A stretch of 62,498 nt of DNA. It comes from Chloroflexota bacterium (lineage in GTDB: Bacteria > Chloroflexota > Dehalococcoidia > Dehalococcoidales > UBA2162). Where the stretch lies: positions 1 through 62,498 of the forward strand of contig JACPPR010000028.1 of assembly GCA_016190895.1 (NCBI GenBank). Reading direction: 5' to 3'. Positions 5,116 to 52,136 of this stretch are shown in pieces. The notes beneath the pieces were generated by a model, which searched no databases, was not told the origin of the DNA, and saw only the letters and a list, made by a program, of their open reading frames with translations. Positions within the stretch are counted from its first letter, which is position 1. Every line of letters starts with the position of its first letter. The position numbers and the translations under genes were made by a program.

Positions 5116-5144
5116 AGCGTTTCGTGTTTCTGATTTGAAAATAG

Positions 5145-7215: not shown

Positions 7216-7243
7216 CGTAAAACTACTAAACATTCTCTGAACG

Positions 7244-32411: not shown

Positions 32412-33212
32412 ATGAAGATTGCCATCAGTGGTAAGGGAGGCGTAGGCAAGACCTTACTATCATCTCTTCTTGCCAGGATATTCGCCGAATCAGGCTATTC
32501 CGTCATTGCTATCGATGCCGACCCGGATGCGAACCTGGCCGCCACCCTCGGTTTCCCCAATGCCGACAAGATTACACCTATCTCCGAAATGGACGAGCTT
32601 ATCGAAGAAAGAACCGGCGCCAAGCCGGGACAATCTGCCCCTTTCTATACACTAAATCCCAAAGTAGATGATATCCCAGAAAGATTTGCCCATAAACTAA
32701 ACGGTATCAGATTAATGAGAATGGGCAGAATCAAGAAGGGCGGCACCGGCTGTTATTGTCCTGAAGGCGCTTTACTCCAGGCCCTGATGGCTCACTTGCT
32801 GGTAGCCAGAAACGAAGTGATTATTCTCGATATGGAGGCTGGCATCGAGCACCTGGGGCGGGGCACCGCCGCCGCCGTTGACAAGCTAATCGTGGTAGTA
32901 GAACCGGGCAGGCGAAGCATTGAAACCGCCGTCAGCATCAAGAAACTTGCCGCTGAAATCGGCTTACGGGACATTGCAGTGGTCGGCAATAAGGTCAGGA
33001 ACCAATCAGACAAAGACTTCATCAAGTCGAGTCTTCCTGATTTTGAATTCCTCGGTTTCATTCCTTATGACCAGGCAATAGTCGATGCCGACCTGGCCAA
33101 CCGGTCACCTCTGGAGGCTAGCCGGCCGGCAAAGGCGGCGGTAATGGAGATATATCAGGCCTTGTTAGCAGGCGCCGGTAAAGGCGCCGGTTCGAAGAAG
33201 CTAAAAGTATAA
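32412..33212 (+). CDS. cooC: CODH/ACS nickel-insertion ATPase CooC/AcsF
   Basis: GKGGVGKT, DADP, GCYCP and DMEAGIEHLGRG. Confidence 0.93.
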   Translation: MKIAISGKGGVGKTLLSSLLARIFAESGYSVIAIDADPDANLAATLGFPNADKITPISEMDELIEERTGAKPGQSAPFYTLNPKVDDIPERFAHKLNGIRLMRMGRIKKGGTGCYCPEGALLQALMAHLLVARNEVIILDMEAGIEHLGRGTAAAVDKLIVVVEPGRRSIETAVSIKKLAAEIGLRDIAVVGNKVRNQSDKDFIKSSLPDFEFLGFIPYDQAIVDADLANRSPLEASRPAKAAVMEIYQALLAGAGKGAGSKKLKV

Positions 33213-33295: not shown

Positions 33296-35071
33296 ATGCC
33301 ATACGACACGTCTAAAATGGCTGACTGGGAGATTGCCGAAGCAGCCGAAGAACACATGCCGACTCCGGACGAGTGGCGGGAAAAGCTGGGGCTGAAAAAG
33401 GACGAGATACTCGGCTACGGCAAGGTGTCCAAACTCGATTTCCTTAAGATTATCGACCGGCTCAAGAACAAGCCTGATGGCAAGTACATCGAAGTTACCG
33501 CCGTCACGCCGACCCCTCTGGGCGAGGGCAAGACAACCACCACCATGGGCATCATCGAGGGGCTAGGCCACGCAGGCTACAATGTGGGCGGCGCCATCCG
33601 GCAGCCCTCGGGCGGCCCCACCATGAACGTCAAGGGTACTGCTGCCGGCGGAGGCAACGCCCTTCTGATTCCCCATACCGAATTTTCTTTAGGCCTGACC
33701 GGTGATATCAATGACATCATGAATGCCCATAACCTGGCGATGGTGGCGCTGACGGCCAGAATGCAGCACGAGCGCAACTATAGCGACAAAACCCTTGAAA
33801 ACCTGAGCCATATGAAGCGCCTGGATGTGGACCCGCTGCGCGTGGAGATGGGCTGGATTATAGACTTCTGCGCCCAGAGTCTGCGCAACATCATTATCGG
33901 CATGGGCGGCCAGAAAACCGATGGCTTCCTGATGCAGTCCAAGTTCGGCATTGCCGTCAGCTCCGAGCTGATGGCAATGTTAGCCATTATCACAGACCTG
34001 GCCGACATGCGATCAAAAATGAATGACATTACCGTTGCTTATGATAAGAAGGGTAAGCCGATTACCACCGGCGACCTGGAAGTGGCCGGCGCCATGACCG
34101 CCTGGATGCGCAATACCATTAATCCCACCCTGTGCAGTACGGCTGAGCTCCAGCCCTGTCTGGTGCATGCCGGGCCGTTTGCCAACATCGCCGTCGGTCA
34201 GTCATCGATTATTGCCGACCGGCTGGGCTTGAAGATGTTCGATTATCACGTTACCGAAAGTGGCTTCGCTGCCGATATCGGCTTCGAGAAATTCTGGAAT
34301 GTTAAATGTCGCTACAGCGGTCTCAAGCCGAACGTATCGGTGCTGGTATCCACCGTTCGGTCGCTCAAGATGCATGGCGGAGGACCCAAAGTAACCCCAG
34401 GCGTGCCCTTACCTGACGCCTACAAAAAATCGGCTCCGGAACTGGTCGAGAAAGGCTGCGCCAATCTGGTGCACCACATCGGTATCATCAGGGCTGCCGG
34501 CATCAACCCGGTGGTCTGCATCAATAAGTTCCCCACCGATACTCAGGAAGAAGTTAACATAATTAAGAGAGCCGCCGAGGCGGCTGGAGCCCGTTGCGCC
34601 TTATCAGAACATTATGCCAAGGGCGGCGCCGGCGCCCAGGAACTGACCGCGGCCGTCGTGGATGCCTGCAAAGAGAAGAACAATTTCCAGTTCCTCTATC
34701 CCAAAGAGACGAAACTGAGACAGCGGGTGGAAAAGATTGCTAAGACCGTTTACGGAGCTAGCGGAGTAGCCTGGACGCCCGAAGCGGAAGCAAAAGCCAA
34801 AGCCTTCGAGGCCGACCCGAAGTATGATGATTACACCACCATGATGGTCAAGACCCATCTTTCGCTATCTCACGACCCGACTCTTAAGGGTGTGCCGAAG
34901 GGATGGACTCTGCCCATTCGCGATATCCTGATTTATTCCGGAGCCAAATTCCTCTGCCCGATGGCCGGGACAATCAGCCTGATGCCGGCCACCGGTTCCG
35001 ACCCGGCTTTCAAGAAAATCGACGTCGATGTCAAGACAGGCAAAGTCCACGGACTTCACGACGTAGCTTAA
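33296..35071 (+). CDS. fhs: formate-tetrahydrofolate ligase
   Basis: [36 protein letters not shown] and KTHLSLSHD. Confidence 0.96.
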
Positions 35072-35321: not shown

Positions 35322-37316
35322 ATGCCTAGAAACACGTCTGGCAGGACAGGTAAGAAAAAAAGAGTTTTATTCCAGCCCGCCAACATCGAGGTTCTCGTTG
35401 AGCCAGGGGCCAATCTCAGGGAAGTTGCTATGCTGGCAGGGGTAAGGCTAATTGCATCCTGTGGCGGCGCCGGCACCTGCGGCACCTGCAGGGTCGAGAT
35501 TAAAGAAGGCGAAGTCGAGACTACAAGGACAGCCAGGCTCACGGACGCAGAATTCGCGCGGGGAATGCGGCAAGCCTGCCAGAGCCGCGTACTCACCGAC
35601 CTGGTGGTCAACGTCCCGGTAGAATCCAGACTTGAGACAGCCGTTCTGGCGCGGGAGCAGAAGGGAAGGGCGGCGGCACAGAAAGGGGTAGAAGCCCTGG
35701 CCACCGGCTGGCGCTTCAACCCTCCGCTGGCTAAATATTATCTTGAATTACCGCCTGCCACCCTGACCGATAATACCAGCGACCTCTCCCGGTTGCTGCG
35801 GGGATTGAGGCAGGAATATAAACTGAGTCACATGACCGTAGATTTTGAAGTAGTTAAGAAATTGCCGACGTTGCTGCGCCAGAGTGATTGGAAGGTTACT
35901 GTCACCACTCTGGTAACGGCTATCGAACCCAAAGGCAACGCCAAACGCCGGCCGAGATTGGTAAACGTCGAGGGCGGCGATACCAGGGACAATCATTACG
36001 CAATCGCCCTGGATATCGGCACCACCGCCGTGAAAATGCAGTTGCTCGACCTGAAAAAGGGCAGGGTTGTCGCCGAAGGCAGCGATTACAACGGGCAAAT
36101 CGATTACGGCTCTGACGTGATTACCCGGATTGCTTATTGCCAGAAACCGGGGGGATTGGAGAAGCTGCAGCAGGTAGTAGTAGGGACTATCAACGAACTT
36201 ATCGACCGGCTACTGGAAGAGAGCCGCGTCAGCCGGGATGATATCGGTCACCTGATGACGGCCGGGAACACAACCATGCTCCAGATTTTGTTGGGGCTGG
36301 ACCCGAAATATATCAGGCTGGCACCCTACACTCCAGCCGCCACCTATGTTCCGCCGGTCAAGGCAAATTCCCTGGGTATCAACCTGGCAGAGCATGTTTA
36401 CCTGTTTGCCTCGCCGCTGGTAGCGAGCTATGTGGGAGGCGATATCGTCGCCGGCGCTGTCGCCGCCGGACTGCATCAGACAAAGAAAGTAACCCTGTAT
36501 ATAGATATCGGTACAAATGGAGAAATAGTCATCGGGAACTCAGATTGGATGGTCACCGCCGCCTGTTCGGCAGGGCCGGCCTTCGAAGGCGGAGAGATAA
36601 AGCACGGTATGCTCGCCTCCAGTGGAGCCATCGAGGGAGTCACCATCGACCCGGCAACCCTGGAACCGACAGTGAGCACCATCGGCGGAACAAAAGCGAA
36701 GGGAATCTGCGGCTCAGGCTTGATAAACACTGTCTCTCAGTTGCTGGAAACCGGCATTATCAATCAGAAGGGGGAGTTCAATTACGACCTGCCGACCAAA
36801 CGAATCAGGCAGAGTAACGATGTTTATGAGTACGTCCTGGCCCGGGCGCCGGAGACACAGATAAATAATGATATTGTTATTACGGCCATCGATATCGATA
36901 ACCTGATACGGGCTAAGGCGGCAATGTACGCGGGTTACCAGACGGTAATTAAAAGCGTGGGTATGACCATGAAGGATATCGAGCAGGTAATCATCGCCGG
37001 CGGTTTCGGCAGCTACATCGATGTGGCAAAGGCGATTACCATCGGTCTCCTGCCTGATATCCCCCGGGACAAATTCATTTTCATCGGTAACGGCTCGCTG
37101 ATGGGCGTCAGGCTAAGCTCCTACTCGACCGATATCATCGATGAAATGAGAAGAGTCGCTGATTTGATGACCAATCTGGAATTGAGCGAGAACGCTGATT
37201 TTATGAATAACTACATCGCAGCCTTGTTCTTGCCCCATACCGACAGTAATGCGTTTCCTTCGGTAATCAGACAGCTTGCCCGGACTCAGAAATCAGGGCG
37301 GAGGGTAGCGGCTTGA
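35322..37316 (+). CDS. acsV: corrinoid reductive activator (RACo/AcsV; 2Fe-2S plus ASKHA ATPase)
   Basis: CGGAGTCGTC...AC, DIGTT, GSDVITR, DIGTNGE, GPAFEG, GICGSG and AGGFG. Confidence 0.92.
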   Translation: MPRNTSGRTGKKKRVLFQPANIEVLVEPGANLREVAMLAGVRLIASCGGAGTCGTCRVEIKEGEVETTRTARLTDAEFARGMRQACQSRVLTDLVVNVPVESRLETAVLAREQKGRAAAQKGVEALATGWRFNPPLAKYYLELPPATLTDNTSDLSRLLRGLRQEYKLSHMTVDFEVVKKLPTLLRQSDWKVTVTTLVTAIEPKGNAKRRPRLVNVEGGDTRDNHYAIALDIGTTAVKMQLLDLKKGRVVAEGSDYNGQIDYGSDVITRIAYCQKPGGLEKLQQVVVGTINELIDRLLEESRVSRDDIGHLMTAGNTTMLQILLGLDPKYIRLAPYTPAATYVPPVKANSLGINLAEHVYLFASPLVASYVGGDIVAGAVAAGLHQTKKVTLYIDIGTNGEIVIGNSDWMVTAACSAGPAFEGGEIKHGMLASSGAIEGVTIDPATLEPTVSTIGGTKAKGICGSGLINTVSQLLETGIINQKGEFNYDLPTKRIRQSNDVYEYVLARAPETQINNDIVITAIDIDNLIRAKAAMYAGYQTVIKSVGMTMKDIEQVIIAGGFGSYIDVAKAITIGLLPDIPRDKFIFIGNGSLMGVRLSSYSTDIIDEMRRVADLMTNLELSENADFMNNYIAALFLPHTDSNAFPSVIRQLARTQKSGRRVAA

Positions 37317-38083
37317 GCTTTGCGATTGCTGTGGCGGGGAAGGGGGGTACCGGCAAGACATCTATAGCCAGTCTCATTATTCGTTACCTGAAGAAGAACG
37401 GCTCGGGGCCGATTCTAGCCATCGATGCGGATGCCAATGCCAACCTCGGTGACGGTCTGGGTCTTCAGGTAGGGGAGACCATCGGCTCGATAATCGCCTC
37501 GTTCAACCAGGAGAAGATTAAGATACCTGCGGGCATGACCAAAGAAGCCTACCTGGAAGTCAAAATGAATGAGGTGGTGGTGGAGAGTAAAGGGGTCGAC
37601 CTGATAACTATGGGGAGGGGCGAGGGCCCTGATTGCTACTGCTACCCTAATTCCGTTCTCAGAAAGGTCGCTGACGAGATGGCGGCCAATTATGCCTATG
37701 TGGTGATGGATAACGAGGCCGGGCTGGAACACCTTAGCCGTAGAACCACCCAGAATATCGACCTGCTGCTGATAATCTCCGACCATTCGGTGAAGGGTAT
37801 CCGGACGGTAGCCCGAATCAGGGACCTGGTGAAGGAACTCAAGCTGGTGGTGAAGAAGCAGGCGGTGATTATCAACTTTGCGCCTGCCGAATTAGCCCCG
37901 ATGGTCAAGGAAGAAATAGCGAGGCTGGGTATCGAATCGCCTTATCTCATCCCCAGGGATGAAGACATATATCAATTCGACCTGGAAGCCAGGCCGCTCC
38001 TTGAGCTACCTGATAGCTGCGTGGCGGTGAAGGCAATCGACAGTTTGATGGCCCAATTCCTGAAAGATAAAGCGAAAGTTTGA
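37313..38083 (+). CDS. cooC: second CooC/AcsF nickel-insertion ATPase
   Basis: GKGGTGKT, CYCYPN and DNEAGLEHLSRRT. Confidence 0.92.
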   Translation: MSFAIAVAGKGGTGKTSIASLIIRYLKKNGSGPILAIDADANANLGDGLGLQVGETIGSIIASFNQEKIKIPAGMTKEAYLEVKMNEVVVESKGVDLITMGRGEGPDCYCYPNSVLRKVADEMAANYAYVVMDNEAGLEHLSRRTTQNIDLLLIISDHSVKGIRTVARIRDLVKELKLVVKKQAVIINFAPAELAPMVKEEIARLGIESPYLIPRDEDIYQFDLEARPLLELPDSCVAVKAIDSLMAQFLKDKAKV

Positions 38084-38098: not shown

Positions 38099-38980
38099 AT
38101 GACAGCAGAAATAATCGATGGGAAAAAGATTGCGGCTGAAATCCAGGCGGAACTGAAACAGCGAATCGCCAACCTTCAGAAGAAGGGAGTGACTCCAAAA
38201 ATCGTGCCGGTTCTCGTTGGAGAGGACCCGGCGTCTTTATCCTATCTGCGCGGTATCACCAGGACTTGCGGCGAGGTCGGCGTAGCCACCGAGACTGCCA
38301 AGCTCCCCGCCGATGCCACCCAGCAGGACTTGCTAAAGAAGATAGACGAACTTAACAAAGACCATAACGTTCACGGCATTCTTTTGTTCCTGCCCTTGCC
38401 CAAGCACTTGAATGCGCTGGAGGCTGAGAGCGCTATCTCACCGGCTAAAGATGTGGATGGGACTAACCCGATAAGCGCCGGCAAGCTGTTACTGGGAGAG
38501 GAAACATTCTTCCCTTCGACTCCCTACGGAGTTAAGGAACTGCTCGTCCGCAGCGGCCACAGCCCGGAAGGCAAACACGTGGTCATCGTCGGCCGCAGCA
38601 ATATCGTCGGCAAACCTTTAATGGGAATACTGGTACAGAAAGACAAGGGCGCTAACGCCACGGTGACTGTCTGCCATACCGGAACCAAGGATACAGCCGC
38701 ATTCACGAGGCAGGCTGACATCCTGGTGGCGGCTGTCGGCAAGGCGAAGGCAATCACCGCCGATATGGTGAGAGAAGGCACGGTAGTAATCGATGTCGGC
38801 GTGAACTTCATACCCGACCCGGCCACCGGCAAGAACAAGCAGGTCGGTGACGTGGATTTTGAAGCTGTAAAGGAAAAGGCAGCGGCGATTACGCCCGTGC
38901 CCGGAGGAACCGGCGCCGTCACCTCGACGATGCTGATGGCCAACACAGTCAGGGCTGCGGAGGCGGCCGCCGGTACCTGA
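38099..38980 (+). CDS. folD: FolD paralogue 1 (dehydrogenase motifs intact; cyclohydrolase Lys and Gln substituted)
   Basis: KDVDG, GRSNIVGKP, IDVG and TPVPGG retained; YLRGI replaces YxxxK and LLFLPLP replaces xxQLPLP. Confidence 0.88.
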   Translation: MTAEIIDGKKIAAEIQAELKQRIANLQKKGVTPKIVPVLVGEDPASLSYLRGITRTCGEVGVATETAKLPADATQQDLLKKIDELNKDHNVHGILLFLPLPKHLNALEAESAISPAKDVDGTNPISAGKLLLGEETFFPSTPYGVKELLVRSGHSPEGKHVVIVGRSNIVGKPLMGILVQKDKGANATVTVCHTGTKDTAAFTRQADILVAAVGKAKAITADMVREGTVVIDVGVNFIPDPATGKNKQVGDVDFEAVKEKAAAITPVPGGTGAVTSTMLMANTVRAAEAAAGT

Positions 38981-39130
38981 TTGCAGAATTAGTTATACTT
39001 CTTTCCTCTCCCCTTGCGGGAGAGTCCCGACTCCGTGCGGGATCCCGTATGAAATCGGGAGATTAAGGTGAGGGGGACATGAATTCGACCCAGGTAACAG
39101 GAACGGTTACCACATAAAAAGGATGATGCT

Positions 39131-40015
39131 ATGACAGCGACGATTTTAGATGGTAGAAAAATATCAGCGGAGATAAGGCTCGAACTCAAGGGAGAGGCGG
39201 AACGCTTGAAAGCGCGAGGCGTTGTTCCCGGCCTGGCTGGCATACTTGTCGGCGAAGACCCTGGCTCGGCACAATACGTCGGCTATAAGAGCAAGGCTTG
39301 CGAGGAGACGGGCGTCAAAGAAATGATGCGTCATCTTCCGGAGAATGTCACTGAAAGAGAGTTGCTGGGCACTATAGACCAGCTAAACAAGGACCCCAAT
39401 GTCCACGCTATCTTCATCCAGCTTCCGTTGCCAAAGCACCTGAATGAAGAGAAAGCGTTGGCAGCAATCGTGCCGAAAAAAGATGTAGACGGTTTTCACG
39501 CTATGAACGTCGGCAAGGCATGGCTGGGCCAGTCCGCCTTCGTGCCGGCGGTTGCAATCGCTATGCATGCGATGCTCATCCGCGGCGGCTACGATATTAA
39601 AGATAAAGAAGTCGTAATCGTAAACGTAGATAACATGGTGGGTAAGCCGCTAGCGTCTATTCTCGTCCAGGACAAGGACAAGGCACGCGCCAATGTGACG
39701 CTGGTTTATCCAACGACGCCAAAACTAAGGGAGTATACGCGGCGGGCTGACGTGCTGGTTGTCTCGGTCAATAAACCAAAGTTCATCACCGCCGATATGG
39801 TCAAAGATGGCGTCATCGTTCTGGACTTCGGCTCGACCTATGTCGAAGACCCGGTAACGAAAAAGAGAAAGAACCTCGGGGATGTCGATTTCGAGGCAGT
39901 AAAAGAAAAAGCAGAAGCGATAACCCCCGTGCCGGGTGGGGTGGGGCCGATGCTGGTCACAATGCTAATGCTAAGTACCGTGCAAGCTGCCAAGCTAGCG
40001 GCCGGGATTGCTTAG
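39131..40015 (+). CDS. folD: FolD paralogue 2 (cyclohydrolase motifs intact; nucleotide-binding motif altered)
   Basis: YVGYK, IQLPLP, KDVDG and TPVPGGVGP retained; NVDNMVGKP replaces GRSxxVGKP and PAVA replaces PCTP. Confidence 0.85.
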   Translation: MTATILDGRKISAEIRLELKGEAERLKARGVVPGLAGILVGEDPGSAQYVGYKSKACEETGVKEMMRHLPENVTERELLGTIDQLNKDPNVHAIFIQLPLPKHLNEEKALAAIVPKKDVDGFHAMNVGKAWLGQSAFVPAVAIAMHAMLIRGGYDIKDKEVVIVNVDNMVGKPLASILVQDKDKARANVTLVYPTTPKLREYTRRADVLVVSVNKPKFITADMVKDGVIVLDFGSTYVEDPVTKKRKNLGDVDFEAVKEKAEAITPVPGGVGPMLVTMLMLSTVQAAKLAAGIA

Positions 40016-40440: not shown

Positions 40441-41388
40441 ATGCCTGTTGAAATTCCTAAGATAGCCTATAGCGGCAAAGTCAAAGAGGTAACCCTGGGC
40501 AAGGGCGGCAAAACCGTCACGGTCGGCGGGGAAACATCCTACCCCTTCTACCTCTTCGAAGGCGCTATGACTAATAAACCAAAAATAGCCATGGAGGTCT
40601 GGGACTGCCCGCCGGAAGACTGGGCGGCAGCCGCCTTAGAGCCGTTTGCCGGGGTAACCGGTGACCCGGTTGCCTGGGCGAAAAAGTGCATCAATGATTA
40701 CGGCGCCGAGATGATTGCTCTTGAGCTAATCAGCACCGACCCGAACGGTCTTAACCGGCCGGCCGCTGAAGCCGCCGCCGTGGTCAAGAAGGTATCTGAT
40801 GCCATCGACGTGCCCTTAATCGTCTGGGGAACGGCCAACCATGAGAAAGATACCGAAGTGCTGAGGCTGGTGGCTGAGCTTTGCCAGGACAAAAGACTGA
40901 TTCTTGGGCCTGTGGAAGAGGGCGACCATAAGAGAATCGGCGCCGCTTCTCTGGCTTACCATCACACGGTCATCGCCTCGACGCCCATCGATATCAACCT
41001 GGCCAAACAGCTTAATATTTTGCTGGGTAACCTGGGCGTTCCCGACGACCTGCTGGTAATGGACCCGACGGTGAGCGGCATTGGCTACGGCATCGAATAT
41101 TGTTACTCGGTAATGGAGAGGATGAGGATGGCGGGTCTGACTCAACAGGATGAGAAGCTTCAGTTCCCTATCATCTGCAATATCTCCAAGGAGACCTGGA
41201 AGACCAAGGAAGCCAAATCCCCGACCGGGGAAGTCCCCGAGCTGGGGGAAGCCAGGAAGCGGGGTATCCTGCTCGAGGCAATGTCCTCGGTAGCCTTGCT
41301 GATGGCCGGAGCCGATGTATTGATAATGAGACATCCGGAAGCAATAAAATTAGTCCGGGAAATGATTGCTGATTTAACCGCCTCATAG
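40441..41388 (+). CDS. acsD: corrinoid Fe-S protein small (delta) subunit
   Basis: VGGET.YPFY.FEG, DINLAKQLN, GYGIEY and RHPEA. Confidence 0.95.
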   Translation: MPVEIPKIAYSGKVKEVTLGKGGKTVTVGGETSYPFYLFEGAMTNKPKIAMEVWDCPPEDWAAAALEPFAGVTGDPVAWAKKCINDYGAEMIALELISTDPNGLNRPAAEAAAVVKKVSDAIDVPLIVWGTANHEKDTEVLRLVAELCQDKRLILGPVEEGDHKRIGAASLAYHHTVIASTPIDINLAKQLNILLGNLGVPDDLLVMDPTVSGIGYGIEYCYSVMERMRMAGLTQQDEKLQFPIICNISKETWKTKEAKSPTGEVPELGEARKRGILLEAMSSVALLMAGADVLIMRHPEAIKLVREMIADLTAS

Positions 41389-41416: not shown

Positions 41417-43381
41417 ATGGCAGAAGAGAAGAAACTAAGTATCGACCCGGCTACTCTTGAGATGATTGAGAAGGCCAACAGCGAAGGGGTTAGTACCGCT
41501 TTCGCGAGGGCCGAGGTGATGAGACCGTGCCCGATAGGCGCCGAGGGCAGTTGCTGCAGTAACTGCGCCATGGGCCCTTGCCGGGTACCGCTACCGAGAG
41601 GTAGAACCGAAACACCGGAGGAGAAAAAGAAGCGCCGGGGCGTCTGCGGGGCGACCGTCGAGACCATCGCCGCCCGCAACTTCGTGCGCAAGATTGCCGC
41701 CGGCACGGCATCTCACGGCGACCATGGCCGCGAGGTGGCCAAGGTCTTCCTTGAGATGGCCAGGGGAGAGGCGCCCGGATTTGAAATCAAGGACGAGCAG
41801 AAGCTCTTGCAGCTTGCCCTGGAACTGGGCGTCAACATCGGTAACCGCAGCAACAAAGAGATAGCTATCGATGTCGGCAAGATACTCGAAGCAGATTTTA
41901 GCCGGCAGGAAGGCGAGCTTGTTTTCCTGAAACGGGCGCCGATAAAGCGCCAGGAAATCTGGAAGAAGCTCGGCGTTCTCCCCAGGGGTATCGATAGAGA
42001 AGTCTCCGAGGCGCTGCACCGCACCCATATGGGCTGCGACCAGGACTATAAAGACCTCCTGCTTCACGGGGCCAAGACCGCCCTGGCCGATGGCTGGGGC
42101 GGCAGCATGATTGCCACCGAACTTCAAGATATCATGTTCGGCACTCCTGCGCCGGTAGCCAGCCAGATAAACCTGGGCGTCCTGAAAATTGACGAGGTCA
42201 ATATCATCGTCCACGGCCATGAGCCTTACCTGGCTGAAACACTTGCCGTAGTGGCTCAAATGCCTGAGATGATTGAATACGCTAAATCGAATGGGGCTAA
42301 GGGTATTAACCTGGCAGGTATGTGCTGCACCGCTAACGAGATTCTGATGCGGCACGGCGTACCGATTGCCGGGAACTTCCTGCAGCAGGAACTGGCCGTA
42401 GTCACCGGCGCTGTCGAAGCGATGGTGGTCGATGTCCAGTGCATTATGCAGGGGCTGGTCGAAGCGGCGTCCTGTTTCCATACCAAGATTATCACCACCG
42501 ACCGCCGCGCCAAGATTGAAGGCGCTACCCACATGGAGTTCGATGAGCATCATGCCGTCGAATCGGCTAAAGCCGTCATCAAGGCTGCCATCGATAACTT
42601 CCCCAACAGAAGGCAGAACGTGCGCATTCCCGACTACAAGACCGACATTATCGCCGGCTTCAGCCATGAAACTATCAACTACCTGCTGGGAGGGCTCTTC
42701 CGGGCTTCCTACCGCCCCCTGAACGATAACATCATCAACGGGCGCATCAGGGGTGTGGCCGGGGTGGTCGGTTGCAATAACGCCAGGGTCACTCACGATG
42801 ATGTCCACGTCACCCTGGTCAAGGAACTCATCAAGAACGATGTCCTGGTGCTCGAAACCGGCTGCGCCGCCATGGCTTGCGGCAAAGCCGGCCTGCTGGT
42901 GCCGGAGGCTGCCGCCCTTGCCGGGCCAGGTCTCCGCTCCGTCTGTGAAGCGGTCGGCATTCCGCCGGTACTGCACCTCGGCGCTTGTATCGATAACAGC
43001 CGTATCCTCATCGCCGCCACCGCTATGGTGAAAGACGGCGGCCTGGGCGATGATATCAGCGACCTGCCGGCTGCCGGTGTAGCGCCGGAGTGGATGAGCG
43101 AAAAGGCAGTCGCCATCGGACAGTACTTCGTCAGCTCGGGGGTCTACACCATCTTCGGCGCCAGCTGGCCTACCGAAGGCAGCAAAGAAGTGACAGATTT
43201 CCTCTTTAAGGAAATGGAAAACCTGTACGGCGGAATGTGGGGCTTTGAGACCGACCCTCTCAAGATAGCCAAAATGGTCATCGACCACATCGATAAGAAG
43301 CGGAAAGCTCTGGGCATCGATAAAGCCAGAGAAAGAGTGCTCTATGACATGGCGATGAGACGGGAACTGGAGGCGGTGTAA
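41417..43381 (+). CDS. cooS: anaerobic Ni-Fe carbon monoxide dehydrogenase catalytic subunit
   Basis: CCSNCAMGPC, HGHEP, CCTANE, DVQC, VGCNN, GACIDNSR and EWMSEKA. Confidence 0.97.
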   Translation: MAEEKKLSIDPATLEMIEKANSEGVSTAFARAEVMRPCPIGAEGSCCSNCAMGPCRVPLPRGRTETPEEKKKRRGVCGATVETIAARNFVRKIAAGTASHGDHGREVAKVFLEMARGEAPGFEIKDEQKLLQLALELGVNIGNRSNKEIAIDVGKILEADFSRQEGELVFLKRAPIKRQEIWKKLGVLPRGIDREVSEALHRTHMGCDQDYKDLLLHGAKTALADGWGGSMIATELQDIMFGTPAPVASQINLGVLKIDEVNIIVHGHEPYLAETLAVVAQMPEMIEYAKSNGAKGINLAGMCCTANEILMRHGVPIAGNFLQQELAVVTGAVEAMVVDVQCIMQGLVEAASCFHTKIITTDRRAKIEGATHMEFDEHHAVESAKAVIKAAIDNFPNRRQNVRIPDYKTDIIAGFSHETINYLLGGLFRASYRPLNDNIINGRIRGVAGVVGCNNARVTHDDVHVTLVKELIKNDVLVLETGCAAMACGKAGLLVPEAAALAGPGLRSVCEAVGIPPVLHLGACIDNSRILIAATAMVKDGGLGDDISDLPAAGVAPEWMSEKAVAIGQYFVSSGVYTIFGASWPTEGSKEVTDFLFKEMENLYGGMWGFETDPLKIAKMVIDHIDKKRKALGIDKARERVLYDMAMRRELEAV

Positions 43382-43427
43382 GTGTCATATCACGAGGAGA
43401 TAATGTACAAGGGAGGATTGAAAAGAG

Positions 43428-45635
43428 ATGTCTAAGATAATTGCCTCGGCAGCAATCAGGGGAGCTCACAAGATTGTCGATAATGCTGAGTCGAAGTGGA
43501 AACAGGCGATGGACAAATGGGGAGCCAACGAACCGGTGGGCTTCCCGAATACCGCCTACTATCTGCCCATCATTTATGGAATTCTGGGCACCAAGGTAGA
43601 AAAGCTCGGCGATATGGAAAAAGTCCTCAAGAAGAGCCGGGCCATCTTGCCGCCGCTGGTGAAAGAAACACATCACCTTCCCTATCTGGCGCCAGCCCTG
43701 GACGCCGGCATGGTCACTATGTTCGCTGAAGAGCTTATCGAAGCGGTAAGGTATCTGGAAAGCCCGAATTTCTATACCAAGACCGAGGATATCAAGCCGG
43801 ATAACATCTGGCTGGGGGCCGCTGACGATATTATCCTCCGCAAGAGAGGCATCGAGTTCGTCGATGGCACGGCTCCCGGCTTCGCTGCCATTCTCGGCGC
43901 AGCGCCGACCAAAGAGATAGCCGCCCGTATCGCCCAGGAACTGCAGCAGAAAAACCTCTATGTCTTCATGTGCGCCGAGTATAACGGCAAGAGATTCTCC
44001 GAGCAGCTCCTGGAAGCAGGCGTGCAAATCGGCTGGCCGACCCGCCTGGTCTCATTCGGACCCGATGTCAGCGCCGCCGTTTTTGCCATGGGCTTCGCCA
44101 CCAGAGCGGCCATGTCCTTTGGTGGCATCGAAGCCGGCGATTTCAGAAAAATCCTCATTTATAACAAGGACCGCGTCTTCGCTTTTGCTTTGCCGATGGG
44201 CTATGTTACCGATGAGTGGTACGCCAATGCCGCCGGAGCCATCAACTGGGGCTTCCCGGTCATTGCCGATACCCCGATACCTGAAGTCCTGCCCACCGGC
44301 ATCTGCACCTACGAGCATGTCGTCTCCAACATTCCTCATGAAAAGCTGGTCGCCAAAGCGGTAGAAGTGAGAGGGCTCAAAGTTACCGTTTCCGAAGTGC
44401 CGATTCCGGTCGCCTTCGGGGCTGCCTTCGAGGGCGAACGGGTACGCGGCGAAGACATTTATCTGGAGTGCGGCGGCGGCCGGACCCAGATGGTGGAATG
44501 GGTCACCAGCAAGCCGATGAATGAAGTCGAGGACGGCAAAATCGAAGTCATCGGCCCCGAAGTAACCGATATCAAGGCCGGTTCTCGGTTGCCGATGGCA
44601 ATCACTGTTGAAGTGGCCGGACGGGAAATGCAGGAGGACTACGAGCCTATCCTGGAAAGGCAGATTCATCACCTTATCAACTACGCCCAGGGGTCGATGC
44701 ACATCGGACAGAGGGACATTGCCTGGATACGAATCAACAAACAGGCTGTGGAGAAGGGCTTCCGGCTCCATCACATCGGCACCATTCTTCACGCCAAGCT
44801 GCACCACGACTTCGGGCGTATCTTCGATAAGCTGCAGGTCAAAATTTACACCGACAAAGATAAAGTAGCCCAGCTCGTGGAACAGGCCAGAGCCGTCTAC
44901 AATAAGAGAGATATGCGCATCGAGGGCATGACCGATGAGAGCGTCGAAACCTACTACTCCTGCACCCTGTGCCAGTCCTTCGCTCCGAGCCATGTCTGCG
45001 TGATTAGCCCGGAAAGAACCGGACTCTGCGGTTCCTATAACTGGATGGACTGCAAAGCCTCTTTCGAGATTAATCCCACCGGGCCGAACCAGCCCGTCGT
45101 TAAGGGGCAACCCATCGACGCCAAGCTGGGTCAGTGGAAAGGCGTCAATGATTTTGTGACCAGGACCTCCCGCGGTAAGATAGACCACTACAATTTCTAT
45201 AGCCTGGTGAACGACCCGATGACCACCTGCGGCTGCTGCGAGGCTATAGCAGCCGTCCTGCCGCTCTGCAACGGTGTAATGACGGTCAACCGCGAGTATA
45301 CCGGCGAGACGCCCTGCGGAATGAAATTCACCACACTGGCCGGGACTATCGGCGGCGGCTTGAGCACACCCGGCTTCGTCGGTCACGGCAAGTATAATAC
45401 CACCCAGAGGAAGTTCCTCGCCGGCGACGGCGGGCTACTGAGAATGGTCTGGATGCCTAAAATGCTGAAGGAAGAACTGGCTGACAAACTGAAAGCTAGA
45501 GCTATTGAACTGGGAGTGCCCGACCTGCTAGACAAGATTGCCGATGAGACAATCGGCGTTACCGAAGAGGCGATACTGCCCTTCCTGACGGAGAAAGGAC
45601 ACCCGGCTCTGACGATGGACCCAATATTGGGATAA
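43428..45635 (+). CDS. acsB: acetyl-CoA synthase subunit
   Basis: FPNTAYYLP, CTLCQSFAP.HVC, RTGLCG, PMTTCGCCE and WMPK. Confidence 0.97.
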   Translation: MSKIIASAAIRGAHKIVDNAESKWKQAMDKWGANEPVGFPNTAYYLPIIYGILGTKVEKLGDMEKVLKKSRAILPPLVKETHHLPYLAPALDAGMVTMFAEELIEAVRYLESPNFYTKTEDIKPDNIWLGAADDIILRKRGIEFVDGTAPGFAAILGAAPTKEIAARIAQELQQKNLYVFMCAEYNGKRFSEQLLEAGVQIGWPTRLVSFGPDVSAAVFAMGFATRAAMSFGGIEAGDFRKILIYNKDRVFAFALPMGYVTDEWYANAAGAINWGFPVIADTPIPEVLPTGICTYEHVVSNIPHEKLVAKAVEVRGLKVTVSEVPIPVAFGAAFEGERVRGEDIYLECGGGRTQMVEWVTSKPMNEVEDGKIEVIGPEVTDIKAGSRLPMAITVEVAGREMQEDYEPILERQIHHLINYAQGSMHIGQRDIAWIRINKQAVEKGFRLHHIGTILHAKLHHDFGRIFDKLQVKIYTDKDKVAQLVEQARAVYNKRDMRIEGMTDESVETYYSCTLCQSFAPSHVCVISPERTGLCGSYNWMDCKASFEINPTGPNQPVVKGQPIDAKLGQWKGVNDFVTRTSRGKIDHYNFYSLVNDPMTTCGCCEAIAAVLPLCNGVMTVNREYTGETPCGMKFTTLAGTIGGGLSTPGFVGHGKYNTTQRKFLAGDGGLLRMVWMPKMLKEELADKLKARAIELGVPDLLDKIADETIGVTEEAILPFLTEKGHPALTMDPILG

Positions 45636-45657: not shown

Positions 45658-47001
45658 ATGCCACTTACCGGAATCGAAATATTCAAGCTGCTGCCCAAGA
45701 CGAACTGTAAGGAGTGCGGGGTACCGACCTGCCTTGCCTTCGCTATGAGCCTGGCGGCGAGCAAGGCAACCCTGACCGCCTGCCCCTACGTTTCCGCGGA
45801 AGCGAAGGCAAAGCTGCAGGAAGCCTCGGCGCCACCGATAAGGGTGGTGAATATCGGCGTCGGCGCCCGGGCACTAAAGGTCGGCGGAGAGACGGTCATG
45901 TTCCGCCACGAAAAGAGGTTCGAGAACCCGCCCGGCATCTCCCTCCTCATCAAGGATACGATGTCTGATGCCGAGGTCGATGCCCGTCTGGACAGGTTTA
46001 TCCAACTCCAGTACGATAGGGTCGGCTTAACCCTCCGCCCCGAGCTGATAGCTCTGAAAGCAGAATCGGGGGACGCTGGTAAGTTCGTGGCGCTGGTGAA
46101 TAAGGTTAAGCAGAAAGTCGATTGCAGCTTGATTTTGATGAGCGATAATCCGGCCATTCTAACTGCCGGAGTCAAGGCATCTGCCGAACGCAAGCCGCTG
46201 CTCTACGCCGCCACCAAGGATAATGTGGATGCCGTGGCGGCCCTGGCCAAGGAGACTGCCTGCCCGGTGGCTGTGAAGGCTACCAGCCTGGACGAAGTCG
46301 CCGAGCTGACGGATAAGCTGACCAAGGCCGGAGTCAACGACATCGTTATCGATTCCGGGGCGAGGACCGTACGCAAGGCTTTTGAAGACCAGGTCATCAT
46401 CAGGCGGGCCGCCTTAGTCAAGAAGTTCAAACCCTTCGGCTTCCCCACGATTACATTCCCGGCTGAGATGACGGACAACCCGATGAAAGAGGCGGCAATC
46501 GCCGCTATGTTCGTGGCGAAGTACGGAGGCATCATCGTCCTCTCCGATTTCCAGGGCGAAGTCCTGTTCCCGCTGCTTGTAGAAAGGTTGAATATCTTCA
46601 CCGACCCGCAGCGTCCGCTGGCGACTACCCAGGGTATCTATGAGATTAACAACCCCAACGAAAACTCGCCGGTGCTGCTGACCAGCAATTTCTCCCTGAC
46701 CTACTTCATCGTCTCCGGTGAAATAGAGTCTAGCAAGGTGCCCAGCTACCTGCTGGTGATGGATACGGAGGGACTCTCAGTGATGACTGCCTGGGCTGCC
46801 GGTAAATTCGTGGCCGATGCCATCGGGCCATTTGTTAAGAAAAGCGGCATTGCCGATAAGATTAAGCACCGCAAGCTGATAATCCCGGGCTACGCCGCCA
46901 CTGAAAGCGGCGGGCTGGAAGAAGAACTGTCCGGCTGGGAGATTCTGATTGGGCCCAGAGAGGGCTCCCTTATCCCGGCCTATCTCAAGACCTGGAAATA
47001 G
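45658..47001 (+). CDS. acsC: corrinoid Fe-S protein large (gamma) subunit
   Basis: LPKTNCKECGVPTCLAFA...CP, FRHEK, TDPQRP, NFSLTYF and GPRE. Confidence 0.96.
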   Translation: MPLTGIEIFKLLPKTNCKECGVPTCLAFAMSLAASKATLTACPYVSAEAKAKLQEASAPPIRVVNIGVGARALKVGGETVMFRHEKRFENPPGISLLIKDTMSDAEVDARLDRFIQLQYDRVGLTLRPELIALKAESGDAGKFVALVNKVKQKVDCSLILMSDNPAILTAGVKASAERKPLLYAATKDNVDAVAALAKETACPVAVKATSLDEVAELTDKLTKAGVNDIVIDSGARTVRKAFEDQVIIRRAALVKKFKPFGFPTITFPAEMTDNPMKEAAIAAMFVAKYGGIIVLSDFQGEVLFPLLVERLNIFTDPQRPLATTQGIYEINNPNENSPVLLTSNFSLTYFIVSGEIESSKVPSYLLVMDTEGLSVMTAWAAGKFVADAIGPFVKKSGIADKIKHRKLIIPGYAATESGGLEEELSGWEILIGPREGSLIPAYLKTWK

Positions 47002-47007
47002 TAGAGA

Positions 47008-47121
47008 AAATCCAAATGAAAAAATTCAAAGTCCAAATCAATATCAAAGTCCAAATGAAAAAATTTTGACATTTAAGCATTTGGATTTTCATTTGAACCT
47101 TGGATTTTGGACTTTGAATTT
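47008..47121. repeat. family G AT-rich heptamer-periodic palindrome (intact copy)
   Basis: AAATCCAAATG...CAAAGTCCAAATC...CATTTGGATTTTCATTTGAACCTTGGATTTTGGACTTTGAATTT; short relative at 48714-48747. Confidence 0.75.
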
Positions 47122-47138
47122 GTTTATGAGGGGGTACG

Positions 47139-48017
47139 ATGATTCTCATCGGAGAAAGTATCAATATCATGTCCAAAACCCTTGGCCCGGCATTGAGGGA
47201 AAGGAACCCGAAGCCTATCCAGGAAATGGCGCTGGCGGAAGTCAAGGCCGGGGTGGATTACCTCGACCTTAATATCGGCCCGGCCCGGCGGGCTGGCGAT
47301 GAGCTGATGAAATGGGTAGTCGAGACCGTCCAGGCGGTTACCGATATGCCGCTATCGCTGGATACGACCAACCCGGTGGCTATGGAGGCCGGTCTCAAAG
47401 TTTGCAAGAGCCGGGCTTTGATTAACTCCGTCTCGCTTCAGCCGGACAGGTTGCAAGCCGGGCTGCCCCTGGCCAAGAACTACAACGCCGATATGATTGG
47501 ACTCCTCTGGGGCGCCGAGGGTATGCCCAGAGACGCTAACGAGAGGTGTATGCTGGCCGTCGAACTGGTCTACCAGGCGAATGATATGGGCATTCCAACC
47601 GAAAATATCTGGATAGACCCAATCGCCAGCCCGATTTCGGTGGAGATAAACCAGGTAAAATCCTGTGTCGAGTTTATGAGCATGCTGGCGGAGGTAGCGC
47701 CCGGCTGCAAGTCAACCGTGGGACTTTCCAACATCTCGAATGGCACGCCGACACATCTAAGACCTTATCTGAACCGGACCTACCTGATAATGCTGATGAG
47801 GTACGGGCTCCATTCGGCCATCGTGGACGCCTTCGATGCCGAACTCAACGCGATAGCCAGAGGCAAGATGCCGGAGGTAGTCAAACTGGTGCATCGGGTG
47901 ATGGACGGCGAGCAAATTGACATAAAGTCGCTGAGTAAAAAAGAGGCGGAGTACGTCAAGACAGCCAGGGTACTCACAGGCGAAACCCTCTACTCTCATT
48001 CCTGGCTAGAAATATAA
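47139..48017 (+). CDS. acsE: methyltetrahydrofolate:corrinoid Fe-S protein methyltransferase
   Basis: IGESIN, DYLDLNIG, LSLDTTN, INS, IDP and GLSNISNG; cluster context. Confidence 0.92.
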   Translation: MILIGESINIMSKTLGPALRERNPKPIQEMALAEVKAGVDYLDLNIGPARRAGDELMKWVVETVQAVTDMPLSLDTTNPVAMEAGLKVCKSRALINSVSLQPDRLQAGLPLAKNYNADMIGLLWGAEGMPRDANERCMLAVELVYQANDMGIPTENIWIDPIASPISVEINQVKSCVEFMSMLAEVAPGCKSTVGLSNISNGTPTHLRPYLNRTYLIMLMRYGLHSAIVDAFDAELNAIARGKMPEVVKLVHRVMDGEQIDIKSLSKKEAEYVKTARVLTGETLYSHSWLEI

Positions 48018-48710: not shown

Positions 48711-48777
48711 CTACAAATGGCAAATGACAAAATCCAAATGACAAATGCAGAGGAATATCTGAGAAAGAAAGAGTAGA

Positions 48778-49215: not shown

Positions 49216-49246
49216 CAATAAAATAAGGAGAGTTTTACGCAATCTA

Positions 49247-49326
49247 CCATTCCGTGCTTGACACGGAATCCAGGAAAACCCAGTTATTAATCCTAGTTTT
49301 CTGGATACCGACTTTCGTCGGTATGG
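49247..49326. repeat. family D repeat
   Basis: Matches 7133-7215. Confidence 0.9.
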
Positions 49327-49367
49327 ATGACGTTAGTGAACAACTTCAATAAGACAGGAGATTCTCA

Positions 49368-50579
49368 GTGCCAGAAAAACGGATTGTTTTGAAGAACTGC
49401 GGCGTTATCGACCCCAGGCGCATAGATACCTACCTGCAGCAGGATGGTTTCAAAGCCTGGCAAAAGGCTTCGGCGATGACGCCCGAGCAGGTAATCGCTG
49501 AAGTAAAAGCCTCCAATCTAAGGGGGCGGGGCGGGGCGGGCTTCCCCTGCGGGCTGAAATGGGAAGGGGCAAGAAACGCCCCCGGCGCCGAGAAATTCGT
49601 AATCTGTAACGCCGATGAGGGCGAGGTGGGGACTTTTAAGGACAGGTATATCCTGCAAAACGACCCCTTTAGCCTTATCGAAGGGCTTGCCATCGCCTCC
49701 CATGCTGTCGGCGCCAGACAAGCCTATATCTATCTGCGGGGAGAATACCGTTTCCTGCTGAGCCAGCTTAGAGGCGCTATTCGCCAGGCGAAAGAAAAGG
49801 GATTCTTGCCCCATGTGGACATCGAAGTTCGTGAAGGTTCCGGCGCTTATATTTGCGGCGAAGAGATGGCATTAATGGAATCCATCGAGGGGAAGCGGGG
49901 CGAGATTCGCTACAAGCCGCCCTTCCCGACGACCCAGGGACTGTGGCAGATGCCTACCGTCATCAACAACGTCGAAACGCTGATGAATGTTGCCCCGATT
50001 ATCTTGAATGGAGCCGCCTGGTTTAATCAAATCGGCACCGAGCGCAGCAAGGGCACCAAGGTCCTCTCAGTGAGCGGCGATGTGGCTAAACCCGGCGTCT
50101 ACGAAATCGTGCTGGGCACCACGCTCAAGGAGCTAATCGTTGATTTAGCCGGGGCGAAGAATATCAAGCTGGTCCAGATAGGCGGCGCCACCGGCAGAAT
50201 CGTGTCTGCCTCGATGCTGGATACTCCGCTCGCTTTTGAAACTATGCTCAGCGCCGGGGCAATCACAGTTTTCGATGAGACCAGGGACGTTATAGACATC
50301 GTTCACAGAACGATGGAATTTCTCGCCGAAGAAAGCTGCGGCAAGTGCTCTCCCTGCCGGGAAGGCTGCGGGATAATCGTTAACATTCTGGAGAGATTCA
50401 TCAAGGGCACAGCGACTCCCAAAGACATCACGACCCTGGAACAACTATCGAGCGCAATGATGCTGACCTCACTCTGCGGTCTGGGGCAGGCAGCCCCTAA
50501 CTCGGTGGTGGACAGCTTGAAGTATTTCCGGAGCGCCTATGAGGAGCGAATGAAGAAAGTTGAGGTGGTGGCAAGATGA
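49368..50579 (+). CDS. NuoF-like NADH/FMN-binding subunit (short form)
   Basis: GRGGAGF, NADEGE, GAYICGEE, NNVET and ESCGKCSPCREG...CGLG; no C-terminal ferredoxin domain. Confidence 0.92.
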   Translation: MPEKRIVLKNCGVIDPRRIDTYLQQDGFKAWQKASAMTPEQVIAEVKASNLRGRGGAGFPCGLKWEGARNAPGAEKFVICNADEGEVGTFKDRYILQNDPFSLIEGLAIASHAVGARQAYIYLRGEYRFLLSQLRGAIRQAKEKGFLPHVDIEVREGSGAYICGEEMALMESIEGKRGEIRYKPPFPTTQGLWQMPTVINNVETLMNVAPIILNGAAWFNQIGTERSKGTKVLSVSGDVAKPGVYEIVLGTTLKELIVDLAGAKNIKLVQIGGATGRIVSASMLDTPLAFETMLSAGAITVFDETRDVIDIVHRTMEFLAEESCGKCSPCREGCGIIVNILERFIKGTATPKDITTLEQLSSAMMLTSLCGLGQAAPNSVVDSLKYFRSAYEERMKKVEVVAR

Positions 50580-51217
50580 TATCAGCGACAGAACAAAAAC
50601 CCCTGGAAGAGATTACCCAATCTCTTGAGAAGTGTAAATCGGTCTATCTCATCGGCTGCGGCACGTGCACAACGATACTGCACACCGGCGGTAAGGCCGA
50701 GGTGCTGGCGCTGAAGGACAAGCTGGAAGCCGCCGGCAAGAAAATAGCCGGCTGGATGGTGATACCCACCGCCTGCGATGAGATAACCAAGTATGCCCTG
50801 GAAAGCAGCGAAAAGGAGATTCAGGCCGCTGATTGCCTCCTGGTTACCTCCTGCGCCTACGGAGTGCAACGGGTCAGCCAGTGGGCGGACAAGCCGGCCA
50901 TCCCGGCCGTAAATACCCTGTTCATCGGCAAAGAAGACGGGGATACCTATTCTGAAGTCTGCGCACAGTGCGGGAATTGCGTTCTGGCCTGGACGGGCGG
51001 TATCTGTCCGATAACCTCCTGCCCCAAGGGGCTGTTAGAGGGACCCTGCGGTGGCACCAACAAGGGCAAGTGCGAAGTCGACCCGACCAAAGACTGCGCC
51101 TGGACGCTGATATACAAACGCCTGGAGCAACAGGGACGGCTCGACCTGCTGGAAAAAGAACAGCCGCCGAGAAACTACCAGGCAGTGGTCAGGCCGGGCA
51201 GGCTTATCACAAAATAG
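50576..51217 (+). CDS. metV: methylene-THF reductase Fe-S/Zn subunit MetV
   Basis: GCGTC...GG, CAQCGNC, GICP...CPKGL..GPCGG...CE...CAW. Confidence 0.9.
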   Translation: MISATEQKPLEEITQSLEKCKSVYLIGCGTCTTILHTGGKAEVLALKDKLEAAGKKIAGWMVIPTACDEITKYALESSEKEIQAADCLLVTSCAYGVQRVSQWADKPAIPAVNTLFIGKEDGDTYSEVCAQCGNCVLAWTGGICPITSCPKGLLEGPCGGTNKGKCEVDPTKDCAWTLIYKRLEQQGRLDLLEKEQPPRNYQAVVRPGRLITK

Positions 51218-51251
51218 TTCGACAGGCTCACTATAAGTAAGAGGAGAAACA

Positions 51252-52136
51252 ATGCCGACACCTTTCAAAGAAGTCCTTAACTCAGGCAAGTTCGTCGTTA
51301 CCTGCGAGATAGCGCCTCCAAAGGGGACTAATCTCGAAAAGGTTATCCACCATATCGATTTGCTCAAGGATAAGGTAGACGGACTTAACGCTACCGATAA
51401 CCAGGGCTCGAGTATGCGCTATCCCTCGCTGGGACTGTGCCTCTTGATTAAGGAACGGGGTGGGGAACCCATCCTGCAAATGACCTGCCGCGACCGCAAC
51501 CGCCTCGCTCTCCAGTCCGACCTTCTCTTCGCTTACTCCCGGGGAATAAACAACGTGCTCTGCCTGACCGGCGACGCTATCACCCTGGGCGACCACAAAC
51601 AGGCCAAGCCGGTGTTCGATATAGATTCCCTCCAATTGCTCAGGACAATCCGCACTCTGGAATCGGGGAAAGACCTGGGCGGCAACGACCTGGACGGCGC
51701 ACCCAAGTTTTGCGCCGGCGCCATCGTTACTCCGGAGGCCCAGCCTATCGAGCCGCAGATGATAAAATTCAGAAAAAAGGTCAGAGCCGGAGCCGAGTTC
51801 TTCCAGACTCAAGCAGTCTATGATATCGGCAATTTAAGAAATTTTATGCAAGCCGCCCGGCAGTATAACACCAAAATCATGGCTGGCATCGTCCTGTTGA
51901 CATCGGCAGGTATGGCCAGATTTATGAACGCAAATGTCTCAGGCATCTTTGTTCCTCAAGCGCTCATCGACGAAATGTCAAAAGCCGAAAAAGGCAAAGC
52001 CCTGCAGAAGGGCATCGAGATTGCCGGGCGCATGATTAAGACCATCAAGGACGAGAAGCTCTGCGACGGCGTTCACATCATGGCAATCAACAAGGAAGAA
52101 ACGGTACCCGATATCTTAGCCGCCGCGGGGTTATAA
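51252..52136 (+). CDS. metF: methylenetetrahydrofolate reductase MetF
   Basis: EIAPPKG, TDNQ, QMTCRDRNR, LTGD, FFQTQ and GVHIMA. Confidence 0.95.
   Translation: MPTPFKEVLNSGKFVVTCEIAPPKGTNLEKVIHHIDLLKDKVDGLNATDNQGSSMRYPSLGLCLLIKERGGEPILQMTCRDRNRLALQSDLLFAYSRGINNVLCLTGDAITLGDHKQAKPVFDIDSLQLLRTIRTLESGKDLGGNDLDGAPKFCAGAIVTPEAQPIEPQMIKFRKKVRAGAEFFQTQAVYDIGNLRNFMQAARQYNTKIMAGIVLLTSAGMARFMNANVSGIFVPQALIDEMSKAEKGKALQKGIEIAGRMIKTIKDEKLCDGVHIMAINKEETVPDILAAAGL

Follow-up and report, generated by a model that had tools for sequence, protein, structure and literature searches.

Contig JACPPR010000028.1 of the Chloroflexota assembly GCA_016190895.1 (positions 1 to 62,498 of the forward strand, referred to below as the window) carries two adjacent, co-directional genes of the FolD family, which lie inside a complete Wood-Ljungdahl (WL; CO2-fixing) gene cluster of an uncultured Dehalococcoidia bacterium. 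The first gene, c1 (38099..38980, plus strand), encodes a protein of 293 amino acids, and the second, c2 (39131..40015, plus strand), one of 294 amino acids; both are full-length open reading frames, and their products share 50% identity across 292 residues in a gap-free alignment. The domains PF00763 and PF02882 are present in c1 (E-values 3.4e-39 and 3.7e-60) and in c2 (2.2e-39 and 6e-46), which places both proteins in the FolD superfamily. A sequence search of the Protein Data Bank (PDB) returned 27 distinct matches for each, nearly all of them FolD/MTHFD enzymes, with the best E-value near 1e-71. The structural model of c2 is confident (predicted local distance difference test, pLDDT, 91.2; predicted template modelling score, pTM, 0.87) and superimposes on solved FolD structures with template modelling (TM) scores of 0.86-0.95. 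Neither protein reaches the curated cut-off of any of the best 25 NCBIfam FolD models listed, the highest scores being 328 bits for c1 and 298 for c2 against a cut-off of 421. The close relatives of c2 in the protein collection are named as coming from Dehalococcoidales or Dehalococcoidia metagenome-assembled genomes (MAGs), and some are labelled merely 'catalytic domain-containing protein'.

The dehydrogenase and cyclohydrolase reactions of FolD share an overlapping active site, and what the lysine of the YxxxK motif and the NADP domain contribute to each of them has been debated on the basis of mutants and simulations. Excerpts of a study of the human enzyme (PMC3368264) assign substrate binding and catalysis to Y52, K56, Q100, L101, D125, G273, and G276, and list T148, R173, S174, I176, H196, S197, A215, T216, Q218, M221, C236, G237, and I238 as NADP contacts, with R173, H196, and S197 binding the 2'-phosphate. 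Examination of the two copies revealed that each lacks one of these two residue sets, which together define the canonical bifunctional enzyme. In c1, the motifs YLRGI (I53, codon 38255-38257) and LLFLPLP (F97, 38387-38389) have lost the lysine and the glutamine of the folate site, and GRSNIVGKP (GRS at 165-167), H193, T194, and PSTP are intact. In c2, Y49, K53 (YVGYK), Q97 (IQLPLP), and D120 are kept, and the NADP site is degenerate, with NVDNMVGKP (39623-39631), PAVA, and VYP (P194, 39710-39712) as its altered motifs and N165, V166, D167, Y193, P194, N214, and F233 as its replaced positions.

To follow these positions through the family, we aligned 17 c1 orthologues, 18 c2 orthologues, and 108 other FolDs from many phyla. 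The position of human K56 is filled by Ile in all 17 c1 proteins, and every NADP position is canonical there (R173, S174, I176, H196, T197, and G217, each 17/17; thus G-R-S and H-T throughout). The position of Q100 is occupied in c1 by Phe (seven proteins), Leu (three), or Gln (seven), and the loss of the glutamine was thus a later event, in a subclade that includes the genome of the window. The reverse pattern is observed in c2, where the Tyr, Lys, Gln, and Asp of the folate site and the PGGxGP loop are invariant (18/18) and six positions of the NADP site have changed in every protein: G172 to Asn (17) or Ser (1), R173 to Val (15), Thr (2), or Ala (1), S174 to Asp (18), S197 to Pro (18), G217 to Asn (16) or Asp (2), and V236 to Phe (18). 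Among the listed NADP contacts, R173, S174, I176, S197, and C236 are altered in all 18 c2 proteins, and T148, H196, and A215 in most. The replacing residues are themselves conserved (D167, P194, and F233 in 18/18, N165 in 17/18, and N214 in 16/18). The other FolDs are nearly invariant at these positions (Lys in 107 of 108, G172 in 108, R173 in 106, S174 in 107, and G217 in 108; 97-100% canonical at the key positions), so that the c1/c2 pattern is far from chance.

All motifs that the initial annotation had quoted for the two copies are present. It would have been refuted by substitutions that are not conserved among orthologous pairs; on this check the core of the pattern holds, namely the Lys-to-Ile change and the six NADP-site losses given above. 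Three of its more detailed statements have to be narrowed. The loss of the Lys/Gln pair from c1 holds for the lysine in all orthologues, but for the glutamine in only 10 of 17. As for c2, the loss of GRS and the proline of VYP extend to all 18 proteins, but a PAVA-like sequence in place of PCTP occurs in only 13 of them and the exact VYP sequence varies; replacement of T148 by Val or Ala and of T279 by Leu (13/18 each) are likewise features of a subclade.

The same division emerged from an unbiased scan, which took in every position with at least 85% conservation among the other FolDs (106 in all). In c1, the consensus is lost at 11 of them (50, 53, 64, 96, 106, 122, 123, 140, 271, 274, and 276); none falls within 148-233. 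All belong to the catalytic domain, to the PCTP motif between the domains, or to the PGGVGPMT loop at the C-terminus, and the scan places the losses of c1 in the folate pocket. In c2, the consensus is lost at 13 positions, nine of which are within 148-233, the NADP domain, where c1 keeps the consensus in 17/17. Several of the c2 replacements are bulkier than the residues they replace (Val to Phe, His to Tyr, Ile to Met) and may represent the filling of an emptied NADP pocket.

The reciprocal pattern recurs in other genomes. With that of the window included, we counted 16 adjacent c1-then-c2 pairs, all with intact frames, in 15 Dehalococcoidia genomes with eight family codes. In the set formed by the source genome and 40 relatives, a FolD match was found in 37 of the 41 genomes, and nine, the source genome included, have two adjacent matches. 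Of 401 genomes sampled evenly across the class, eight contain c2-like proteins (62-75% identity), the next best match having 54% identity. When 401 genomes were sampled from the phylum, the c2-like matches were confined to four genomes, all of the same class. These counts come from whole-genome searches, which were used in place of a pattern-based locus search that had picked up common FolD motifs; only one of the 80 loci kept by the latter (L045) is c2-like. The pair is a real, conserved, and non-random feature.

Several genomes depart from the simple tandem arrangement. In G264 (L130, G264:C9, ~6977-8740, and L129, 7260-8135), the c2 remnant behind c1 is broken into two pieces, and an intact c2 lies about 75 kb from c1 on the same contig, adjoining fhs, acsE, and acsD; the two genes can thus function unlinked. 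G018 has part of a c1 gene, located where a contig ends. Two different c1-c2 pairs occur on the short contigs C83 and C63 of G119 (L125 and L126), with c2 75% and 64% and c1 75% and 76% identical to the window; the second pair is either genuine or the product of two strains that share one bin. At L045, from a public MAG (Dehalococcoidia isolate W498), c2 (5992-6867) is preceded by a very divergent partner (5126-5992; 46% identity to c1, branch length 2.34), which has Ile at the lysine position, GGAGKQGK for GRSNIVGK, and C-D-Y for C-H-T, residues by which the partner in this lineage may have changed its cofactor preference. Finally, a genome with a canonical FolD (G024) also encodes a second, very divergent FolD paralogue (L044, G024:C1, ~3570-4488; 41% identity to c1) that has Leu at the lysine position, reads QEPLP, keeps GRS intact, and carries nine inserted residues ahead of PATP; it may be an independent lysine-less FolD.

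The genes of the cluster in the window are arranged in the order cooC, fhs, RACo, cooC, c1, c2, acsD, cooS, acsB, acsC, acsE, three NuoG/E/F-like genes, metV, and metF; the cooC, fhs, RACo, acs, cooS, and met genes are, like c1 and c2, on the plus strand. The first gene encodes a CooC-type nickel-insertion ATPase (32412..33212) and is followed by fhs for formate-tetrahydrofolate ligase (33296..35071), whose product, 10-formyl-tetrahydrofolate (10-formyl-THF), is the substrate of the cyclohydrolase. A RACo-type reductive activator of corrinoid protein (35322..37316) and a second CooC/AcsF-type ATPase (37313..38083) come next, the latter immediately 5' of c1, and immediately 3' of c2 stands AcsD, the small corrinoid Fe-S protein subunit of the CdhD family (40441..41388). 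Downstream are the carbon monoxide dehydrogenase gene cooS/acsA (41417-43381) and the acetyl-CoA synthase gene acsB (43428-45635), which together span 41417..45635, then acsC (45658-47001) and the AcsE methyltransferase gene (47139-48017), within 45658..48017, and, at 50576..52136, metV (50576-51217) and metF (51252-52136), the latter for methylene-THF reductase, the step after the dehydrogenase. The NuoG-, NuoE-, and NuoF-like genes between acsE and metV/metF (48033-50579) encode an Fe-S, a 2Fe-2S thioredoxin-like, and an FMN/NADH-binding protein, and suggest a methylene-THF reductase module that is linked to NAD(P)H and possibly bifurcates electrons. Just past the cluster are a protein of the uroporphyrinogen decarboxylase (URO-D) family, which includes MtaA-type methyltransferases (52460-53716, minus strand), and an old yellow enzyme (OYE)-type flavin oxidoreductase fused to a pyridine-nucleotide-disulphide oxidoreductase domain (54108-56252, plus strand).

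Relatives have one canonical FolD gene in the slot between cooC and acsD that the c1-c2 pair occupies here; distant families show the arrangement c1-c2-fhs. No further FolD-family match was found in 13 of the 15 genomes with adjacent pairs, and PF04961, the FTCD_C domain of FchA-type cyclohydrolases, was not found in the source genome (G000; 2.09 Mb), nor in five pair-bearing genomes that are 91-98% complete. In these genomes, the methyl branch of the WL pathway apparently relies on the pair. A domain search of c2 itself likewise did not find PF04961.

Both clades are under purifying selection. Over 136 genome pairs, the median proportion of nonsynonymous differences (pN) is 0.175 for c1 and 0.206 for c2 against a synonymous proportion (pS) of 0.81; synonymous sites are saturated (pS ~0.81, with the synonymous rate dS above 1 or undefined), and the usable result is that pN is far below pS, not a precise ratio. 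The nonsynonymous rate (dN) is higher in c2 than in c1 in 107 of the 136 pairs. In a quick IQ-TREE search on 144 rows, with support given by the Shimodaira-Hasegawa-like approximate likelihood-ratio test (SH-aLRT) only and the tree unrooted as to the order of events, the c1 (17 rows) and c2 (18 rows) proteins are each set off from all other rows by a branch with SH-aLRT 100. Both clades join two canonical FolDs, one from L063 and the partial copy of G153, at SH-aLRT 91 (not starred), and they are separate from the main clade, which is formed by the single FolDs of Dehalococcoidia. Genera of one and the same family differ, some having the pair and others one canonical FolD in that cooC-acsD slot, a mixed distribution that suggests either an old duplication with differential loss or in-situ replacement.

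The spacer between c1 and c2 in the window (38981..39130, 150 nt) is longer than the spacers of the 15 other adjacent pairs, predicted at 0-42 nt, and holds a copy of a short dispersed repeat (core ~39001-39075) with 43 other matches of 65-100 nt, up to 100% identical, across the contigs of the source genome. It looks like an intergenic element of the repetitive extragenic palindrome or miniature inverted-repeat transposable element (REP/MITE) kind, inserted between genes that are elsewhere tightly spaced. Folding of the spacer RNA is no better than that of shuffled sequences (z -1.39), and no riboswitch or attenuator is therefore proposed. The stretch is present in four DNA runs, which are groundwater metagenomes of one study, and no RNA run is listed among those that contain it; contigs from the three other runs cover both genes with few or no differences, none of them at the key codons. 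The repeat is very deep in metagenome contigs, and the contigs of the other runs end at it, so that no single one spans c1 to c2 and they neither confirm nor contradict the adjacency, for which the evidence is the window itself together with the 15 other adjacent pairs. One low-depth contig of run X3 has, near its end, 11 single-base differences within ~70 nt of c1 (38335-38407), which probably reflect a co-occurring strain.

Taken at the level of sequence comparison, residue conservation and the unbiased scan support the division proposed in the initial annotation, in which c1 would be only an NADP-dependent dehydrogenase and c2 only a FolD-fold cyclohydrolase, a reciprocal subfunctionalisation to which we assign a probability of roughly 65%. 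A bifunctional FolD of the WL cluster would have been duplicated in tandem, and the two copies would have divided its two reactions. The predicted role of c1 is the NADP(H)-dependent interconversion of 5,10-methylene-THF and 5,10-methenyl-THF with little or no cyclohydrolase activity, because the NADP(H) site and the folate-binding residues are kept and Ile stands at the position of the YxxxK lysine. The predicted role of c2 is the interconversion of 10-formyl-THF and methenyl-THF without NAD(P) binding, because the Tyr, Lys, Gln, and Asp of the folate site are kept and the residues of the dinucleotide loop and of the 2'-phosphate site are replaced; its Rossmann-like domain would have been retained as a structural and dimerisation scaffold. 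Acting together, c1 and c2 would connect Fhs to MetFV in the methyl branch. According to excerpts of PMC9173628, the cyclohydrolase of MTHFD2 requires no cofactor or ions and is independent of the dehydrogenase activity, and the K56E variant of MTHFD1 is still active as a dehydrogenase, its Km being raised 6-fold and its isotope effect unchanged, which makes two half-enzymes chemically plausible. The activities, the NADP specificity, the loss of cofactor binding by c2, and any heterodimer are what we infer from these data.

Several points weigh against this assignment. In the excerpts of PMC3368264, Lys56 and Gln100 are also given a role in the dehydrogenase step and hydride transfer, and c1 could therefore be a poor dehydrogenase. 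The human numbering used here was placed by motif identity and the residue lists of that paper. The conserved new residues of c2 fit the filling of a pocket, but they also fit a new ligand. The source genome, in which no FolD-family match besides c1 and c2 was found, is incomplete (79%), and the pair is not always the sole FolD, as G153, which bears the pair, also has a third, partial FolD whose motifs are canonical.

The structure of a c1:c2 complex was modelled as well. The interaction prediction score from aligned errors (ipSAE) is 0.90, versus 0.00 for the best control, with the mark applied to such models being reached by 116 of 157 solved complexes and by 2 of 215 mismatched pairs; three runs share at least 97% of the contacts, and the partner pLDDT is at least 92. 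The modelled interface comprises residues 124-134, 158, 166-179, 188-197, and 202 of both chains and coincides with the symmetric two-fold interface of canonical FolD dimers. Such a score is expected anyway from the solved FolD homodimers, which it may merely reflect. At this interface, c2 has W131 (18/18) and A130 (16/18), and c1 has L131 (16/17), Thr or Ala at 127 (15/17), and Gly or Ala at 176 (17/17), positions at which other FolDs have Met, Val, or Leu (131), V127, and N176. These size-complementary differences at self-contacting positions give a weak hint of a heterodimer. We would entertain only tentatively the stronger proposal of an obligate asymmetric c1:c2 heterodimer, in which a cofactor-free cyclohydrolase subunit would be joined to a lysine-less dehydrogenase subunit.

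Other explanations of the pair were considered. One is an artefact, either an assembly chimera or a decaying duplicate with one copy on the way to a pseudogene, in favour of which it can be said that the contigs from other runs end within the repeat of the spacer, none bridging both genes; this explanation, to which we give almost no credence, is refuted by recurrence and conservation, that is, by 16 adjacent pairs with intact frames in 15 genomes of eight family codes, by pN far below pS, and by the full support of both clades. A split by cofactor is unlikely but deserves more attention. Under it, c2 would still be a dehydrogenase/cyclohydrolase, working with NAD+ or another hydride acceptor, and c1 would work with NADP+, so that two redox pools were coupled. 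The new pocket residues of c2 are conserved rather than random, from D167, P194, and F233 to N165 and N214, its whole Rossmann-like fold is kept in the model, and acetogens have NAD-using FolDs (excerpts of PMC5736913), all of which this explanation would accommodate. Nevertheless, neither the first glycine of the dinucleotide loop nor G217, each present in 108 of the 108 other FolDs, is left in c2, and strand beta-2 ends without an acidic residue (x-[YHQ]-P there); five listed NADP contacts are changed in every c2 and three more in most, and the NAD-using human MTHFD2 retains GRS in the alignment. The loss of the loop glycine and the missing acidic residue also make the NAD-switched c2 that the initial annotation had offered as an option less probable than the cyclohydrolase.

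Slightly less credible again is a catalytically silent c2, a pseudoenzyme that would stabilise or regulate c1 in a heterodimer, with the cyclohydrolase step either spontaneous or performed by c1 through another base. The heterodimer model, the interface positions that differ between the copies, and the somewhat faster evolution of c2 would agree with it. A silent partner would have no need of Y49, K53, Q97, D120, and the PGGxGP loop, all invariant in c2, and the losses of c2 are in the NADP domain and not in the folate pocket; moreover, the intact c2 of G264 is encoded away from c1, adjoining fhs. Of the alternatives in which both proteins are genuine enzymes, the less probable is that c2 catalyses a different folate conversion, with 5-formyl- or 5-formimino-THF as examples of its substrate, and that c1 is effectively still bifunctional. 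Clade-specific changes of c2 near the folate site (L95F and C140A in 18/18, T275L in 13/18) could be taken in its favour, but the loss of the c1 lysine in all proteins and then of the glutamine in ten looks like decay of a cyclohydrolase site, c2 is always linked to fhs and WL genes, and the PF04961 search of the source genome and the five pair-bearing genomes gave no other cyclohydrolase candidate.

The proposed division into a dehydrogenase and a cyclohydrolase can be compared with several known systems. The canonical bifunctional enzymes (E. coli FolD, 1B0A; the dehydrogenase/cyclohydrolase (D/C) domain of human MTHFD1, 1A4I; MTHFD2, 5TC4) share both Pfam domains and the fold with c1 and c2 (PDB sequence E-values of 1e-54 to 1e-71; TM about 0.9 for the c2 model), and it is such a canonical FolD that sits, as a single gene, in the WL slot of the relatives. 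Yeast MTD1 is a monofunctional NAD-dependent methylene-THF dehydrogenase of the FolD fold and also lacks the Lys/Gln pair. It is only distantly related to c1 (1EDZ, E-value 1.1e-7), which has kept the 2'-phosphate binders R166, H193, and T194 and is thus predicted to be not of the NAD type and of independent origin. In Acetobacterium woodii, the excerpted description of the fhs1-fchA-folD-metVF cluster (PMC3315566) likewise has the two steps on two proteins beside fhs in the genes of the WL methyl branch; the cyclohydrolase there belongs to the unrelated FTCD_C family (PF04961), whereas here it would be a FolD paralogue. The N-terminal domain of MTHFD1L is likewise FolD-derived and lost its catalytic functions after duplication (excerpts of PMC11064299), but there both activities were lost and the domain is fused to the synthetase, whereas c1 and c2 are free-standing and each lacks a different one of the two residue sets. 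The deep-sea Chloroflexi study, in the excerpts of PMC5736913, treats FolD as bifunctional. No description of a split FolD was found in the literature searched, subscription papers being outside its coverage.

The c1/c2 split is a new variation within the known FolD family and an unusually clean bacterial example of reciprocal loss following a tandem duplication. The predicted half-enzymes are natural ones, conserved in the sampled genomes from eight family-level groups, and they offer test cases, c1 for whether the dehydrogenase works well without the lysine and c2 for whether the cyclohydrolase works without any cofactor site. Such genes are routinely labelled 'bifunctional FolD' in WL reconstructions of subsurface Dehalococcoidia, and their annotation is affected accordingly. 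If the asymmetric heterodimer is real, c2 would be the first monofunctional cyclohydrolase of the FolD fold, and the pair a natural dissection of an enzyme with two activities at one site. If the division of labour is true, these bacteria would have, besides FchA, a second and independent route to placing the cyclohydrolase step on a protein of its own.

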